IMG/VR virus record: IMGVR_UViG_3300021387_001106
Span: 1-64,000 of that record
Direction: 5' to 3' (one strand)
DNA: 64,000 nucleotides
From: a virus
Taxonomy: Duplodnaviria > Caudoviricetes
Shown piece after piece: positions 1 through 45,578 of the stretch; position 1 is the stretch's first letter; the number at the start of each line of letters is the position of its first letter. Below the pieces are notes generated by a model. The model had not been told where the DNA came from. It was given only the letters and a program-made list of their open reading frames with translations, and did no database searches. The position numbers and the translations under genes were made by a program.

Positions 1-176
1 ATACGGCGCAACTCACGCTGTAGAGGAATGAAGGAAAACCTAAGCCTTCTAAGTTCCCGATGCTAAACTGTGTAATCGGCGCTGGATTAGATGAGAGTCT
101 GTCCTGAATGAGAAAGCTCTGCGAGAGTGAGCTTCTTGGGGTGACGCCCGGTGGAGACCGAATAGTCTATATGATT
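1..176 (+). ncRNA. 3' part of a large structured ncRNA, ROOL/GOLLD-like (5' end outside window)
   Basis: No ORF; stacked short hairpins (AGAAAGCTC/GAGCTTCT, CGGT-GGAG-ACCG, GCGA/GTGA loops); CCTAAGCCTT...TAAA..TGTAATC segment resembles my recollection of ROOL/GOLLD motifs; directly upstream of tRNA-like array. Confidence 0.45.
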
Positions 177-262
177 GCCCCTATAGTTCAATGGAAGTCG
201 ATTTAAGCATGTAGAACGCCAATGGTCTTTAGGTAATCTGGGTTCGATTCCCAGTGGGGGCG
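177..262 (+). tRNA. tRNA-like element with enlarged D-loop and disrupted anticodon arm
   Basis: Acceptor GCCCCTA/TGGGGGC, D-stem GTTC/GAAC, T-arm CTGGG-TTCGATT-CCCAG; anticodon arm does not pair properly. Confidence 0.65.
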
Positions 263-266
263 GTTA

Positions 267-350
267 TGTGTTGAAGCGATAGGTTAGAGGGAGACACCGG
301 GTCGCCAACAACGACTAAGCGTGGGTTCGAGCCCCACAGACTTCAACACA
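267..350 (+). ncRNA. tRNA-like RNA with 10-bp terminal stem
   Basis: TGTGTTGAAG/CTTCAACACA closing stem, arm GGTCG-CCAACAA-CGACT, T-arm GTGGG-TTCGAGC-CCCAC; no proper D-arm. Confidence 0.55.
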
Positions 351-389
351 TTTCAGCCTTACGTCCAAAGACTATAATAAAGTGCTGGT

Positions 390-458
390 TGCACAGTGAG
401 CAAGTGGAAGCGACCTTACGTAATAAGGTAAATGCAGGTTCGAGTCCTGTCTGTGTAA
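390..458 (+). tRNA. Atypical tRNA-like element (loop ACGTAAT, nominal GTA/Tyr, no U33, short D-arm)
   Basis: Acceptor TGCACAG/CTGTGTA, anticodon stem ACCTT/AAGGT, T-arm GCAGG-TTCGAGT-CCTGT. Confidence 0.55.
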
Positions 459-550
459 GCCGTGTTTATACATTTGGCGTTACTAAAATGTATGGGCGGG
501 TAAGTACGTAGCCAGAACAGCCGTCAGCAGAGAAACAGGTTCAGGTGAGT

Positions 551-613
551 GGGGCATGTAGCTCAAAGGGAGAGTGGTGCGCAAGATGTGGGTTCGAATC
601 CTACCATGTCCCA
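551..613 (+). tRNA. tRNA-like element lacking the anticodon arm
   Basis: Acceptor GGGCATG/CATGTCC, D-arm GCTC-AAAGGGA-GAGT, T-arm GTGGG-TTCGAAT-CCTAC; only ~12 nt between D and T arms. Confidence 0.65.
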
Positions 614-718
614 GCGGGGTTAAGAGCAAATGTGGGTAACCCAGTGAGGTGTCTGTTTACAGATACTTCAGGCCAATTATTCCCGATGTGCAGTTACCGG
701 TTTACTTTAAACCGACCA

Positions 719-808
719 GGGAGCGTAGCTCAAAAGGAAGAGCGGCTGAGACCCAACAGAGTAAGGAGCCAATCAGTATGGATACAGGTTCGAGTCCTGA
801 CGCTTCCA
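719..808 (+). tRNA. tRNA-like element with 23-nt expanded anticodon loop
   Basis: Acceptor GGGAGCG/CGCTTCC, D-arm GCTC/GAGC, anticodon stem GCTGA/TCAGT enclosing 750-772, T-loop TTCGAGT. Confidence 0.65.
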
Positions 809-838
809 ATACAGGATATGCAATAGAAAAGGAGTTAT

Positions 839-1075
839 ATGGAGAGAGAGTGGGCAATTTATGCGTCCTTTAACATCGGTGGGAAACAAATGTACGTCAT
901 GGCATTTGGACCTGCACCCCGGATATACGAAGCGCTGGGAAGCGCCAAAAGTTCCATAGCACTCGCCTACAGGGACGCAGATATGGAAAGCATAGACTTC
1001 ACATGCGCCATGGAAGTCCCATTTGAGGGAAACGGAAAGTGGTATGTCAGGGAAACGGTGGCAGAAGAATTTTGA
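839..1075 (+). CDS. Hypothetical protein
   Basis: AAGGAG RBS, 78-aa ORF between tRNA-like elements. Confidence 0.65.
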   Translation: MEREWAIYASFNIGGKQMYVMAFGPAPRIYEALGSAKSSIALAYRDADMESIDFTCAMEVPFEGNGKWYVRETVAEEF

Positions 1076-1084
1076 GATAAACAA

Positions 1085-1201
1085 GGGAACGTGGTGTAAG
1101 GGTAGCATAGAAAAAGGGAGGTCATGTCTGTGGCCTTGTCAGCAATAAATCTTAAATCGTCTGCTAAACGGTAGGTGCGGGTTCGAATCCCGCCGTTCCC
1201 A
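1085..1201 (+). tRNA. tRNA with GCT (Ser) anticodon, short variable loop and 46-nt insertion (1110-1155)
   Basis: Acceptor GGGAACG/CGTTCCC, D-stem GTGT/GCAT, anticodon arm ATCGT-CTGCTAA-ACGGT, T-arm GCGGG-TTCGAAT-CCCGC. Confidence 0.75.
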
Positions 1202-1220
1202 TTATCAAAAAAAGGAGATC

Positions 1221-2723
1221 GTGATGAACTTTGCGGAAGCAATGCGGCAGGAACATAAGTGGACTAAGACCGAGAATGGAGCAGTCGCCCTGAATACATC
1301 GGGGGATGCACTTCTCGATTTTTTTGGTACTGTTGGTGCTCTTCGTGAGGCGCCTGATACGAGGGTCACTACCCTGTTCGAGGAAGCCTATAAGGAAGAC
1401 CCGGCCATCGCCACGAAGATACTGTTCTACGCAAGGGACATCCGTGGCGACGGAGAGACGACCGGGCTCGGTGAGCGCAAGACGTTCAGGACTATCCTGA
1501 GGTACTGTGCATATCATCATCCTGAAGCCGTCCGTCCAAACCTTGACCTGGTCGGCGCGTACGGGCGCTACGACGACCTCTATGAACTGGTTGGGACTCC
1601 GCTTGAAGATGACGCCTTCAAGGCAATGAGGAAGCAGTTCGACGAGGATCTGGACAACATGTCAAAGGGGAACGTCATTTCCCTTCTCGCCAAGTGGATA
1701 AAGACTGCGGATGCTTCTTCCGCACAGACGCGGAAACTGGGAATCCTGACCGCAAATAAGTTCGGGATACCTGTATATAACTTCAAACGCATCGTGCGTG
1801 CTATGAGGAAGCACATAGGCGTAGTCGAGGGGCTGATGTCCACACAGCAGTGGGACAAGATAAAGTATCCTGATGTCCCTTCGAGAGCGATGCTGATATA
1901 CAGGAACGCTTTTATGAAGCACGATGGGATACGGTTCAACACCTTTGCCCAGAAAGCGGCAAGCGGTGAAGAGAAGATAAACTCCGCAACACTGTTCCCG
2001 TATGACATCATCGAGAAATACAGGGGCGGATGGTGTTATGGATATACGGGCGGCAACCTTGACAAGGTGCAGGAGCAGATTCTTCAGGCACAGTGGGATC
2101 AGCTCCCGAACTATGTTGAAGAGGGAACGAACGCCATCGTCATTGCAGACACATCTGGGAGCATGACCGGCAGACCCATGGATACTGCGGTGGGGCTCGC
2201 CATCTACTTTGCCCAGAGGAACACAGGAGCGTACCACGACCTGTGGATGAACTTCTCATCTGACCCGTCTTTCCAGAAGATAAAGGGGAAGACACTGAAG
2301 CAGGTCTTGAGAAACATCAATTATAACAACTGGAACGGAAGCACAAACTGCGAAGCGGCGTTCGAGCTCATCCTCGGGACTGCTGTCAAATACCGGATTC
2401 CACACGAAGAGATGCCGAAAGCACTGATTATCATTTCCGACATGGAGTTCGATTACTGTGGCGACGGGCAGTGGACGTTCTATGACCGTATGAGGGCTGA
2501 GTACAGCCAGAAGGGATATGACATCCCTACCGTCATCTTCTGGAACGTCGACAGCCGCCACGATGTTTTCCACGCGGACAAGACGCGCAAGGGCGTCATA
2601 CTCGTCAGCGGGCAGTCGGCATCTGTATTCCAACAGTTAATGGGGAGCGTCGGCATGACCCCGGTGGAGCACATGATGAAGGTGGTCAATTCAAAGAGAT
2701 ACGAACCGATAACAGTCGGTTAA
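1221..2723 (+). CDS. DUF2828 family protein (helical N-domain + C-terminal vWA; Ro60/TROVE-like architecture)
   Basis: TENGA, LLDFF, RDIRG..GLGER, GRYDDL, SLLAKW, NSATLFPYDI motifs; vWA MIDAS DTSGSM...GSTN...IISDMEFD; FWN. Confidence 0.9.
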   Translation: MMNFAEAMRQEHKWTKTENGAVALNTSGDALLDFFGTVGALREAPDTRVTTLFEEAYKEDPAIATKILFYARDIRGDGETTGLGERKTFRTILRYCAYHHPEAVRPNLDLVGAYGRYDDLYELVGTPLEDDAFKAMRKQFDEDLDNMSKGNVISLLAKWIKTADASSAQTRKLGILTANKFGIPVYNFKRIVRAMRKHIGVVEGLMSTQQWDKIKYPDVPSRAMLIYRNAFMKHDGIRFNTFAQKAASGEEKINSATLFPYDIIEKYRGGWCYGYTGGNLDKVQEQILQAQWDQLPNYVEEGTNAIVIADTSGSMTGRPMDTAVGLAIYFAQRNTGAYHDLWMNFSSDPSFQKIKGKTLKQVLRNINYNNWNGSTNCEAAFELILGTAVKYRIPHEEMPKALIIISDMEFDYCGDGQWTFYDRMRAEYSQKGYDIPTVIFWNVDSRHDVFHADKTRKGVILVSGQSASVFQQLMGSVGMTPVEHMMKVVNSKRYEPITVG

Positions 2724-2725
2724 TA

Positions 2726-2819
2726 TGGGGCACTTACAGCGAATAATAAAACCAGAAGGTTGGGAACCGGGTGGAATACCCCGGGAACTGTGGATATAAC
2801 CCACCCACAAAGTGTCCTG
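2726..2819 (+). ncRNA. CAGC(G/A)A-stem RNA element, copy 1
   Basis: TGGGGCACTT-ACAGCGAA ... AAGTGTCCTG closing stem with three internal hairpins; no ORF. Confidence 0.6.
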
Positions 2820-2829
2820 ATTCAATAAG

Positions 2830-2948
2830 GCGACCGTAGCTCAGTTGGGAGAGCGCTATATGCAACGGGTCATGCATGTGGCCCCGACAGCAACTATCGC
2901 AATCCACTTTTAATGGAGAGGTCGCGGGTTCGAGTCCCGCCGGTCGCT
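2830..2948 (+). tRNA. tRNA-Lys(TTT) with 46-nt insertion (2858-2903)
   Basis: Acceptor GCGACCG/CGGTCGC, D-arm GCTC-AGTTGGGA-GAGC; removing the insert gives anticodon arm CTCCA-CTTTTAA-TGGAG; AGGTC variable loop; T-arm GCGGG-TTCGAGT-CCCGC. Confidence 0.8.
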
Positions 2949-2951
2949 ATA

Positions 2952-3003
2952 TGGGGTGCTTGCAGCAATCATCATTCTAATGGGTTTAGAAAAAGGCATC
3001 CTG
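2952..3003 (+). ncRNA. CAGCAA-stem RNA element, copy 2
   Basis: TGGGGTGCTT-GCAGCAA ... AGGCATCCTG closing stem, internal hairpin TTCTAA/TTAGAA. Confidence 0.6.
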
Positions 3004-3020
3004 AAGAAAAGGAGAACACA

Positions 3021-3290
3021 GTGACAAACGCAGAAAAATTCCACGCCGTGTTTGGCATGTACGCCACGGAAATCTGGTCACTTCCAGAAGCTGATTTTCT
3101 GAAGTGGCTCAATGAGGCAGCCGGGACGGACAGTATTCCGAACCTTCTGGAGGATGGAACGCTGGTCGTTCCTGTCAAAGAAGGGGCAAAGGTCGGACGT
3201 GTCCTTATCGAGGAAGAAGGTACGTGTTTTGGCAGTATGTTCTACCCGGACGGGCAGGGGACTGATTGTATCGGGGAGGGTGTTGATTGA
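3021..3290 (+). CDS. Hypothetical phage protein
   Basis: AGGAG RBS before GTG 3021; upstream part of the track ORF overlaps the tRNA. Confidence 0.65.
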   Translation: MTNAEKFHAVFGMYATEIWSLPEADFLKWLNEAAGTDSIPNLLEDGTLVVPVKEGAKVGRVLIEEEGTCFGSMFYPDGQGTDCIGEGVD

Positions 3291-7567: not shown

Positions 7568-7804
7568 ATGAGAAAAGAGACGAATCCGATCATACTGGCA
7601 AACAACATCAAGCAATATCTGGAAAAAAGCGGGATGAAGAGGAGCGAACTTGCAAGGAAGACCTATACGTCAGAGGTCTCAATCACCAGATACTGCTCTG
7701 GTCAGCGGCACCCGGACGCCTACACGATATACAGGATGGCAAAGGCGCTCGGCTGCACTGTCGAAGACCTTATGAAAGGGGTGGACGAAGAGACGTGTGA
7801 ATAA
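7568..7804 (+). CDS. XRE-family HTH regulator
   Basis: ELARKTYTSEVSITRY...MAKALGCTVEDL. Confidence 0.85.
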   Translation: MRKETNPIILANNIKQYLEKSGMKRSELARKTYTSEVSITRYCSGQRHPDAYTIYRMAKALGCTVEDLMKGVDEETCE

Positions 7805-14681: not shown

Positions 14682-16451
14682 TCATTCATAGAAAAACCGT
14701 ACGGTAATCCCGTTTTTGAACCGTATGACGGTCACCTTACCGCTTGTGATGGTGATTCTGTCGATGACCCTGTTCATGAAGTCCTTCGGGACAGAAGGCT
14801 CCAAGGCTTTTAAGATGGTGACCGGGTCTTTTGCGCTTCCGCTGAGCAGCTTGTCTACCATCAGGAGATAACTGGCTTTGCTCGCAAAGTCCTTGTCGGA
14901 GAAGTTTTCGACTTCGGGGACGGATTTTTCGAGCATGCTGTCTATCTCTGTGAGCTCGTCGAGGATACGTTTCCTCTCTATCCTATAATCCTTTTCTGCT
15001 ATCCCGTCATCGCCGTACAGGAAAAGCGACTGGAGCCTGCCGAGGGAAGATTCGAGTTTTCTTTTCCTGTCCTTCAGCATCTGGATGTCATCTGACTGGG
15101 CTCTGTTTGAAGAAGGCGGGGAGTATTCAAAGCCGGTCGTACCGGACTGGATGGCTTCAACGAATGCGTCAAGCCCCTCTATACGCAGTATACCGGATGT
15201 TCCGTTGCCCGAAAGTATCGCCTGTTCAATATCGTCAGCTGTTGTATTCCTGCCTGTGCGCCCTACGGACGTCATTACCCCGGAGATCGTGGAAAAAACA
15301 AGTGGTGCGATGGAGAGGTCGTTTACGTATTTGCTATCACACTGGGATGTCTTTCTGCGCTTTGCGGCGCAGCCGTACATGGAAGGCCGGTGCCCATCGG
15401 CACGTCTGCGGTCCTGTGTGGCTGTCATATTTGCCCCACAGTTCCCACATTGCAGAAGGCCGGCAAAGATATGGACGGCTTTGCCTGTATAGGTATCTCC
15501 CTTCTTTGGCCCTTTTCGTACGTTCCTTTTCAGCATGAAGTTCAGCCTGTCAAAACGCACATCATCTATTATGGCGGGATGGTGGTCTTCAACGTCTATC
15601 CACTCGGTGCTGTCACGCTTTGCATTGCCCTTACCATCGGAATGTACGTTGTAGCGGTAGACCCCTTTATAAAAGACATTTGTCAACAGTTTGTGTACCC
15701 CGACGGGGTTCCATGGGCGGCCAGAACGCGTGTGCAGACCCTTCCCGTTGAGCTCCTGACACACCTTCAGCAGGGATTGCTTTTCCTCATACAGGTTGCA
15801 GATGTAACGGTAGACCTCCGCCTCTTTTTCATTGACAGAGAAGGTCTTTGCCTCGGTATCCCAGTCATATCCGTAGGGGACGCGACCGCCGTTCCACTGG
15901 CCGTTGTTGGCTCTGGAAAGCATGACGGCGGTGACACGCTCCGCTGTCATCTGACGTTCGAGCTCCGCGAACACGAGGATGATCTTCAGCATCGCCTCGC
16001 CTATCGCGGTCGATGTATCGAACTGCTCATTCTTCGACACGAAAGTAACGCCTATCCGCTTTAATTCAGAGTACATGGTGGCGAAATCGAGAAGATTTCG
16101 GCTGATACGGTCGATCTTCCAGACGAGCAGGTGGGAATATTCCCCTGTCCTCAGCCTTGCCATCATGCGCTGATAAGCCGGCCTTGAGGTATCCTTACCT
16201 GAATAGCCGGGGTCTTCGAACACGTCATAATCTTTTATGCCGAGGACCAGTTCGGAATACGCGGCAAGCTCACGCCTCTGTACCTGAAGGGAATCTTTAT
16301 CAATCTGGAACTGCGTAGATACACGAATGTAAATGGCTGCTTTGTTTCGCAAAATAGTTTCCATATATCCCATCCATTTTTCCGAAAAATATGCACGGAT
16401 GGATAAGCAGCGCTTTTTGCGTGCCGGCACCCGTGCATCGTTATCGTTCAC
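14682..16451 (-). CDS. Large serine recombinase / integrase (start may be 16373 or 16364)
   Basis: AAIYIRVST catalytic motif, DRISRN, GGRVPYGY recombinase domain, zinc ribbon CGNCG. Confidence 0.95.
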   Translation of the reverse strand: MNDNDARVPARKKRCLSIRAYFSEKWMGYMETILRNKAAIYIRVSTQFQIDKDSLQVQRRELAAYSELVLGIKDYDVFEDPGYSGKDTSRPAYQRMMARLRTGEYSHLLVWKIDRISRNLLDFATMYSELKRIGVTFVSKNEQFDTSTAIGEAMLKIILVFAELERQMTAERVTAVMLSRANNGQWNGGRVPYGYDWDTEAKTFSVNEKEAEVYRYICNLYEEKQSLLKVCQELNGKGLHTRSGRPWNPVGVHKLLTNVFYKGVYRYNVHSDGKGNAKRDSTEWIDVEDHHPAIIDDVRFDRLNFMLKRNVRKGPKKGDTYTGKAVHIFAGLLQCGNCGANMTATQDRRRADGHRPSMYGCAAKRRKTSQCDSKYVNDLSIAPLVFSTISGVMTSVGRTGRNTTADDIEQAILSGNGTSGILRIEGLDAFVEAIQSGTTGFEYSPPSSNRAQSDDIQMLKDRKRKLESSLGRLQSLFLYGDDGIAEKDYRIERKRILDELTEIDSMLEKSVPEVENFSDKDFASKASYLLMVDKLLSGSAKDPVTILKALEPSVPKDFMNRVIDRITITSGKVTVIRFKNGITVRFFYE

Positions 16452-43370: not shown

Positions 43371-43706
43371 ATGAGGATTTACGTAGAAAAGAACGCAAGG
43401 CTGGGTGAGGGCTACCATGTCCGTGTGATGGGTGATGAGGGCCAGACCGACCTGATCGACTTCCATCCATACACGCTCAGGAAGGCCGTCCTGATGGCGA
43501 AGAAGGCACTGGACATTATCAATCAGCGTGAGGGGGCGAACACCAAGCTCCGCCACGTTCTGGAGATTGACCAGAAGAGCGTCATCGACAACAGGGAGTT
43601 CGATGACCTGAGCTGGAACATCGCCTCTAAGATTGATGCGGGGCAAGGCATCAGCTATGAGGACGGTATTGAGGACTGCTTAGATGATTCTGATAAAGGA
43701 ACTTGA
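43371..43706 (+). CDS. Hypothetical protein
   Basis: Promoter at 43302, GGAGG RBS. Confidence 0.65.
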   Translation: MRIYVEKNARLGEGYHVRVMGDEGQTDLIDFHPYTLRKAVLMAKKALDIINQREGANTKLRHVLEIDQKSVIDNREFDDLSWNIASKIDAGQGISYEDGIEDCLDDSDKGT

Positions 43707-45448: not shown

Positions 45449-45519
45449 CCGCCATTAGTATATTGGATAGAACGTTCCTATCTAAGGGAAAGGGCGAGGT
45501 TCGAATCCTCGGTGGCGGT
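45449..45519 (+). tRNA. Degenerate tRNA, most similar to tRNA-Arg(TCT)
   Basis: Acceptor CCGCCAT/GTGGCGG, TGGATAGAAC D region, T-arm CGAGG-TTCGAAT-CCTCG; loop TATCTAA lacks U33. Confidence 0.55.
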
Positions 45520-45578
45520 CTCAAACGAGGAGGCGGCAAGCCTCCTTTTTCATTTTCCGAAAACAGAAGGAGTACGGA

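Follow-up and report, generated by a model that had tools for sequence, protein, structure and literature searches.

The first 64,000 nucleotides (64 kb; hereafter the window) of the 98.6-kb phage record IMGVR_UViG_3300021387_001106 carry, close to their start, an array of five consecutive tRNA-like elements, here called A to E, which have the upper half of a tRNA and no standard anticodon arm. Comparison with related phages supports the view that these elements are maintained by selection and that they no longer decode, or no longer in the normal way. The reading that we favour, at a little under even confidence, is that the five elements are tRNA-type punctuation, marking places where RNase P and RNase Z would cut to release the flanking RNAs and mRNAs.

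All five elements pass the gathering threshold of the Rfam tRNA model RF00005 (29 bits), with scores of 31.5-42.7 bits; canonical tRNAs of related phages score 60-72 bits. A script check found U8, A14, the D-loop GG, a UUCGA T loop and the G53-C61 pair in every one of them. The acceptor stem is fully paired (7/7) in A, C, D and E. In B only four of seven pairs form in the tRNA register, with three non-Watson-Crick pairs (CxA, GxG and AxA) beside the junction, and what serves as terminal stem is an outer helix of 10 bp joining 267-276 to 341-350. A first-pass annotation, made from the sequence alone, had described five elements here with paired terminal stems, intact T loops and damaged anticodon arms. 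Their placement, T loops and abnormal anticodon regions are borne out by RF00005 and the script check; the terminal stems are as described in four elements and take the form of the outer helix in B, and the 24-nt D loop of A is an addition to that account.

A standard anticodon arm, with a 5-bp stem, a 7-nt loop, U33 and a purine at position 37, is found in none of the five. Between its D and T stems A has no stable arm. In B and C a 5-bp anticodon stem closes a loop of 7 nt (CCAACAA in B; ACGUAAU, with GUA as anticodon, in C), both loops carrying C33, and the D stem of C is 2 bp long. In D, 12 nt (GGUGCGCAAGAU) stand where the anticodon arm would be. This element carries G-1, C73 and G3:U70, and its string GGUGCGCAAGA is the 3' half of the anticodon arm of a true tRNA-His in a related phage (L012); it looks like a tRNA-His body minus about 10 nt, apparently deleted between GUG repeats. 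The stem GCUGA/UCAGU of E closes a 23-nt loop, its acceptor is of the Ala type (G3:U70 with A73) and its T stem holds one mismatched pair (AxA). ARAGORN, a check proposed with the first-pass annotation, gives an anticodon only to C and leaves E without an identity (Table 1).

The closest relatives of this phage come from gut and rumen-type samples. The array was compared with 92 related (DUF2828) loci, and 119 loci of unrelated phage tRNA arrays (L097-L215) served as the control set. Lineages with array elements were confined to L001, whose DUF2828 protein is 81% identical to that of the window, to L011, with L093 matching L011 over the stretch read, and to DNA contigs of other sequencing runs (X2, X4 and X8), for which the positions given below are among the differences listed. 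Pattern scans for B, for the leader preceding A ('up') and for the spacer between C and D ('sp1') matched only L001, L011, L093, or nothing. Elements C and E had no homologs among the 92 related loci, and a 19-mer from the loop of E had no match in viral contigs. A candidate diverged homolog of A, at L089 1629, turned out to be coding sequence.

The slot of A in L001 and L011 and that of D in L011 contain the same defective forms and no intact tRNAs. The acceptor, the 24-nt D loop (AAUGGAAGUCGAUUUAAGCAUGUA) and the T loop of A are identical in these relatives; three of the four D-stem pairs and one T-stem pair differ, all still paired, and the middle region is wholly different: in L001 it folds into a hairpin of 7 bp and a 3-nt loop, and in the window it is unpaired. 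The homolog of D (L011 7740-7800) has the same 12-nt arm replacement and keeps G3:U70, G-1 and C73, while G1-C72 has become U1-A72 and two T-stem pairs swap GC and GU, with none broken. At the position of C, L011 has a widely different element (7576-7646), with a CUUG tetraloop on its anticodon stem; four acceptor/T pairs differ and all are paired. Over these three comparisons (A with L001, D with L011 and C with its positional homolog) 11 pairs differ, none is broken and seven of the changes are two-sided. When substitutions were placed at random as a control, about 0.14% of the trials combined four or more stem changes with no broken pair; this frequency applied to A and also to D.

The sequencing-run variants give a similar picture. 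In X4 contigs A>G at 425 and 426 turns two A-U pairs into G-U, and the anticodon stem of C stays paired. In X2 contigs (about 92% identity) 777 T>C turns a G.U into a G-C pair in the anticodon stem of E, and 800 A>T mends its T-stem AxA to A-U. B differs from its L001 counterpart by a single change, C33 for U33; U33 is also present in X4 and X8 contigs (306 C>T), and C33 in B is therefore a recent change. The comparison by arm had been proposed with the first-pass annotation, for which intact tRNAs in close relatives, with mutations spread evenly over all arms, would have spoken for decay. Since the defects recur in the relatives, accompanied by compensatory changes in the stems, the test does not refute its claim, and selection for a non-decoding role appears, from these alignments, to have kept the upper half of the elements.

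The best-conserved DNA of the region lies between the elements, in up and sp1, and exceeds the tRNA-like elements in conservation. Up is 98.9% identical to L011 8023-8198 and 100% identical to L001. Identity to L011 is 90.3% for D, 78.9% for A, 62% for C and 60% for the small open reading frame (ORF) that follows E; identity to L001 is 98.8% for B (1899-1982) and 76% for the DUF2828 gene. The conserved up and sp1 blocks stop exactly at acceptor-stem ends, that of sp1 running from the last acceptor bases of C to G-1 of D. A 13-bp hairpin is predicted in sp1, where one of the three changes from L011 turns an A-U into a G-U pair. The spacer between D and E ('sp2') resembles L011 over its first ~25 nt only, and in an X8 contig 718 is joined directly to 257, so that B comes straight after 718. 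A tRNA-like element stands at each boundary of the region: up/A, A/B, C/sp1/D, D/sp2/E, E/ORF and ORF/1085-1201/DUF2828. Homologs of the small ORF in L001 and L011 come after a canonical tRNA-Asn, which occupies the slot of E; decoding and non-decoding units are therefore interchangeable there.

Because the flanks outdo the tRNA-like elements in conservation and end exactly at acceptor ends, punctuation is favoured, and among the roles suggested in the first-pass annotation it is the one that fits best. The acceptor/T-arm and the elbow are all that RNase P and RNase Z require (PMC4919913), and the modules would have been kept because they supply what such enzymes recognise, namely the acceptor/T-arm helix together with the elbow made by the D and T loops. 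Transcription of the region would yield one long precursor or two, in which every module would be cut at its 5' end by host RNase P and after its discriminator base by RNase Z or a comparable enzyme. These cuts would free up, sp1, sp2, the small-ORF mRNA and the DUF2828 mRNA with defined ends. The tRNA-like bodies cut out in this way would probably persist as stable by-products, of which some may serve further functions.

Table 1. Features of the array and its surroundings (positions in the window)
Feature	Positions	Strand	Description
up	1-176	+	conserved non-coding leader; last base just before A position 1; no Rfam match
Element A	177-262	+	RF00005 38.6 bits; tRNA-like, 24-nt D loop, no anticodon arm
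Element B	267-350 (core 273-345)	+	RF00005 31.5 bits; core inside 10-bp outer helix
Spacer	351-388	+	perfect TATAAT at 373-378
Element C	389-461 (390-458)	+	RF00005 38.6 bits; ARAGORN Tyr(gta); cloverleaf, weak D stem
sp1	459-551	+	structured spacer between C and D; 96.7% identical to L011
Element D	551-612 (552-612 + G-1 at 551)	+	RF00005 42.7 bits; no anticodon arm
sp2	613-718	+	structured spacer between D and E; minimum free energy -33.2 kcal/mol, z -2.5
Element E	719-808	+	RF00005 42.3 bits; ARAGORN 'tRNA-???'; 23-nt anticodon loop
Small conserved ORF, 78 aa	839-1075	+	from ORF list; follows E; no Pfam family
tRNA-shaped gene with stem+ACAGCAA handle	1085-1201	+	scanner match; handle model R1 38 bits at 1114-1148
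DUF2828/DUF7788/vWA gene	1221-2723	+	Pfam (vWA weaker); Ro60-like fold

Several points weigh against this reading. Co-transcription, cleavage and the stability of the products are steps that we infer from the sequence. No RNA run was listed as containing the region (window 1-3000). Punctuation alone needs only a 40-50-nt acceptor/T minihelix, and does not explain the D arms, the anticodon stems of C and E or the invariant D loop of A; nor does it explain the enrichment of G3:U70 described below or the presence of that pair in D and E, where it is accompanied by A73 (E) or by G-1 and C73 (D). In B the inner acceptor is mismatched, and the sites at which RNase P and RNase Z usually cut would lie hidden within the 10-bp outer helix. 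The comparative sample is small, with two or three independent lineages per element, and recent exchange, as opposed to constraint, could account for so high an identity in up, sp1 and B. A promoter scan gave no sigma-70-type promoter upstream of the array. The TATAAT in the spacer before C, 12 nt upstream of that element and with a weak -35, may be an internal promoter of the array, although the same scan, on account of that -35, did not list it.

The leader raises a further difficulty: instead of or besides encoding an RNA, it may mark a genome end, serve in packaging or form an attachment boundary. The contigs of the window and of L001 start at the identical base (ATACGGCGCAACTC...), which is internal in L011 and L093 and lies there directly after a tRNA-like element. 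L001 also tolerates an insertion within up, which is split at window 107/108 by a HEARO/IscB element. This insert (L001:108-1736) comprises a HEARO (OMEGA-type) RNA (RF02033, 139 bits) and an HNH/IscB-like ORF. The tRNA-like element directly before the up homolog of L011 (7953-8020) has a perfect 7-bp acceptor, a 3-bp anticodon stem and an 8-nt loop.

Surveys of other phage arrays place these elements in context. A strict scanner requiring acceptor, T arm and D arm, which replaced a permissive version prone to false matches, gave 259 distinct matches on the array strand of the 92 related loci and one on the opposite strand, an asymmetry that exceeds chance. In the unrelated arrays 86.6% of elements have a standard arm with a 7-nt loop and U33, 9.3% have a base other than U at position 33, and 4.0% have another loop size or no hairpin; the corresponding values in the DUF2828 loci are 88.2%, 2.6% and 9.1%. 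Anticodon-defective tRNA look-alikes are thus a low-level general feature of phage arrays, and what is unusual in this array is that all its members are non-canonical. Among control tRNAs with perfectly paired 5-bp arms, 22 of 395 carry C33 (e.g. loops CCGAUAA and CCGUUAA, L097-L215), and C33 by itself is not necessarily damage. The term 'damaged' in the first-pass annotation is accordingly too strong for B and C on this count, while non-canonical holds for all five.

Three armless tRNA-like elements were seen in unrelated phages, in L140 (62 nt), L146 (57 nt) and L187 (58 nt); that of L140, where a GC-GCAA-GC mini-hairpin replaces the arm, resembles element D. A 127-nt tRNA-like element at L001:1991-2117 (58 bits, Lys-type loop CUCUUAA) has a ~55-nt insert between its anticodon and T arms, unlike the stem+ACAGCAA handle considered below. 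In L003, a match to the group I intron model RF00028 (5969-6232; 39.9 bits, below the threshold of 50) lies in the array downstream of the DUF2828 gene. An intron reading of the 23-nt loop of E or of the D-loop insert of A was rejected: there was no Rfam intron match, and the inserts are far too short, known bacterial tRNA introns being group I introns of well over 100 nt. A search of the phage genome for an antisense target of the same two loops gave nothing above chance level, its best hit being 12 complementary nt at 43455-43466 (E 0.07).

A possible but rather doubtful alternative is that the bodies themselves are the functional products, stable L-shaped RNAs that would engage tRNA-binding proteins without decoding. 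They might serve a DUF2828 particle as partners or substrates, a relation that Rsr has with YrlA's tRNA-like domain; they might be sponges for host tRNA-binding or tRNA-cleaving defence proteins; or D and E might be charged by AlaRS or HisRS. Full cloverleaves are maintained here, beyond minihelices, and the stems of A covary around its invariant D loop. Some relatives have intact anticodon stems capped by stable loops of 4-5 nt, namely GCGA in L037/L041 (2618-2685), UCGA in L064 (4283-4351), UCGCG in L062 (4530-4598) and the CUUG of L011; with such loops these elements cannot decode. As sponges, bodies without a loop would be poor decoys for loop-specific nucleases. For the same reason the anticodon-nuclease decoys of the first-pass annotation are disfavoured for A, D and E, and its T-box decoys likewise, these three having no anticodon to pair with a specifier.

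The case for a DUF2828 partner begins with the protein itself. An AlphaFold model of moderate quality (pLDDT 64.8) has as its best full-length matches the Ro60/TROVE structures 9kop, 2nvo, 9l5y and 1yvr (E 1e-7 to 1e-5), which suggests a Ro60-like fold; sequence searches gave no Ro60 match in the PDB and no match to Pfam TROVE. Y RNAs that mimic tRNA are ligands of Ro60-type proteins in bacteria and phages, as in Rsr with YrlA (Chen et al. 2014, PMC4201824) and the Ro60 of Thermus phage phiLo with Yrl1/Yrl2 (PMC12135203). Like the array, these Y RNAs have non-decoding, tRNA-like D and T arms and are encoded at most about 1 kb upstream of a gene with a Ro60 fold. YrlA, however, is permuted, its ends forming the Ro-binding stem, its acceptor closed by a loop and its sequence carrying a GNCGAAN0-1G motif (PMC4201824). 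The elements of the array have open acceptor ends and none of these YrlA features. The Rfam YrlA model (RF02553) had no match at E up to 5 in 1-3200, and the GNCGAAN0-1G motif is absent from both strands of 1-1220.

What does accompany the DUF2828 gene is a handle of a 6-bp stem, a UCAUG...GUGA loop and then ACAGCAA, carried by the two tRNA-shaped genes that flank it. A covariance model of this handle (R1, built from 42 copies and run with filters off) matches the window only at 1114-1148 and 2862-2896, and in 1-1000 it found no match at E up to 10 in the array or its spacers, including 647-676. In L011, where up, A, sp1 and D are retained, another gene takes the syntenic slot, and the 38-kb L011 record, only 37% complete, contains no DUF2828. 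In related phages the handle-bearing elements cluster next to DUF2828, whereas the short defective ones are scattered through the arrays, and the frequency of the latter in DUF2828 loci (9.1%, against 4.0% in unrelated arrays) is only a weak enrichment. A direct role as DUF2828 ligands, also raised in the first-pass annotation, is weakened by the missing handle and Y RNA motif, by L011 with no DUF2828 and by the lack of clustering.

The acceptor stems of D and E bear on the same alternative. With the two locus sets taken together, 8 of 34 anticodon-defective elements carry G3:U70, against 17 of 561 canonical ones (Fisher p 2.7e-5), a count that includes one homologous pair and depends on a crude classifier of our own, and for these two reasons we treat it as a lead and not as a result. 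The excess is specific to pair 3:70, other acceptor positions having none of this size, and G3:U70 is found with A73 in the defective elements of L174 and L203 also. G3:U70 is the alanine (AlaRS) identity pair, and AlaRS and HisRS are independent of the anticodon; some anticodon-less bodies may therefore still be aminoacylated. A broader proposal, which we consider improbable as it stands, is that phages maintain aminoacylated anticodon-less tRNA bodies, derived by preference from tRNAs that are charged without regard to the anticodon (Ala with G3:U70, His with G-1 and C73), with D and E as members. D and E would then be charged, non-decoding mimics that feed or block an aminoacyl-tRNA-dependent enzyme of the host or of a defence system. 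The tRNA-like domain of tmRNA similarly combines a G3:U70 acceptor with a T arm and no anticodon arm, a likeness to D and E; the array differs in having no mRNA-like tag region and no pseudoknots. ARAGORN found no tmRNA in the window, and the sole Rfam tmRNA-type match there (19 bits at 1177-1312) is at chance level.

Another alternative, to which we give little credence, concerns B and C alone, which would still be working tRNAs (Val-AAC and Tyr-GUA) with C33 conferring resistance to anticodon nucleases. Both have the stem and loop sizes of a decoding arm, ARAGORN calls C a tRNA-Tyr, the X4 variants leave its anticodon stem paired, and C33 recurs among unrelated array tRNAs at the rate given above. 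The three consecutive mismatches in the acceptor of B speak against it, as does the recency of its C33, the relatives having U33. An A34 anticodon, as in B, is unusual for bacteria. C has a 2-bp D stem and no long variable arm of the kind found in bacterial tRNA-Tyr, and its positional homolog in L011, with a 4-nt loop, cannot decode. Both also score well below the relatives' canonical tRNAs (31-39 against 60-72 bits). Anticodon-loop changes in phage tRNAs have been proposed as an escape from anticodon nucleases such as VapC, PrrC and colicins (van den Berg et al. 2023, PMC10264068). Those tRNAs likewise differ from the host in the anticodon loop, and the proposal may apply to the C33 of B and C; they are, however, still decoders with 7-nt loops, whereas A, D and E have no usable anticodon loop.

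The remaining explanation is that the elements are tRNA pseudogenes in neutral decay, no longer needed and similar between relatives only through recent common ancestry. This phage has no canonical tRNA (ARAGORN, RF00005), against 4-10 near the same gene in relatives; D is explicable by a simple 10-nt deletion between GUG repeats; there are mismatches in the acceptor of B and in one T-stem pair of E; and some 4% of members of unrelated phage arrays are likewise anticodon-defective. Yet the phage that lost its canonical tRNAs has retained A, B and D, which relatives carry alongside canonical ones; the deleted D and the armless A persist where neighbouring protein genes are only 60-76% identical; and the bases of the tertiary interactions are intact in all five. 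Neutral decay is unlikely, because relatives lack intact tRNAs here and all 11 changed stem pairs, seven of them compensatory, stay paired (control ~0.0014), and we accordingly consider the pseudogene explanation very improbable.

The closest precedent for punctuation is found in plant mitochondria, where tRNA-like t-elements are regarded as cis-signals for cuts by RNase P and RNase Z (Forner et al. 2007, PMC1920247). Like the members of the array, t-elements are non-decoding tRNA-like structures at the ends of other RNAs in polycistronic transcripts, for which the upper half suffices; the array agrees with them in fold and position if a single transcription unit is assumed. They differ in being organellar, with mapped transcript ends, whereas the array belongs to a phage of gut or rumen bacteria known from sequence, and has full-size cloverleaf bodies with D arms, flanked by conserved non-coding RNAs and mRNAs. 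RNAs C and D of phage T4 (rnaC/rnaD) have tRNA-like 3' parts. They are small stable phage RNAs encoded with tRNA genes, described as 'RNAs of yet unknown functions' (PMC9697503), and resemble the array in these respects; T4 differs in having working tRNAs, where this phage has none that are canonical. In Bacillus cereus, tRNA(Other) is a pseudo-tRNA with a regulatory role that is not used in translation (PMC3399842), and so a further tRNA-shaped RNA with a non-translational function. It is, however, a single chromosomal gene with an anticodon arm of normal size, no array and no link to the processing of neighbours. A full-text literature search turned up no paper on tRNA-like punctuation in phages. 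Punctuation is the probable mechanism of the array, and A, D and E may have extra roles.

A search of the 98.6-kb genome with RF00005 gave eight tRNA-like genes, all on the + strand and all inside the window. One of these stands alone far from the array (45449-45520, 33.1 bits); its loop is UAUCUAA, with A33, and ARAGORN reads a 6-nt loop there ('tRNA-??? ct'). As an RNA-repair context, the same genome was searched for RtcB and a CCA-adding enzyme, and neither was found. The phage looks temperate and encodes a large serine recombinase (14682-16451).

The tRNA genes of phages are usually read as helpers in codon usage or as replacements for tRNAs destroyed by defences. The array would represent a third use, in which the tRNA shape is selected after the decoding part has gone. 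Genes of this kind are labelled 'pseudo' or 'undetermined' tRNAs in annotation and then ignored. If they are cutting marks, phages would dice multi-RNA transcripts with host tRNA-processing enzymes, as mitochondria do, and up and sp1 would be uncharacterised phage small RNAs beside a Ro60-like gene; if some of the bodies are charged, they would represent a new kind of phage-host interaction.

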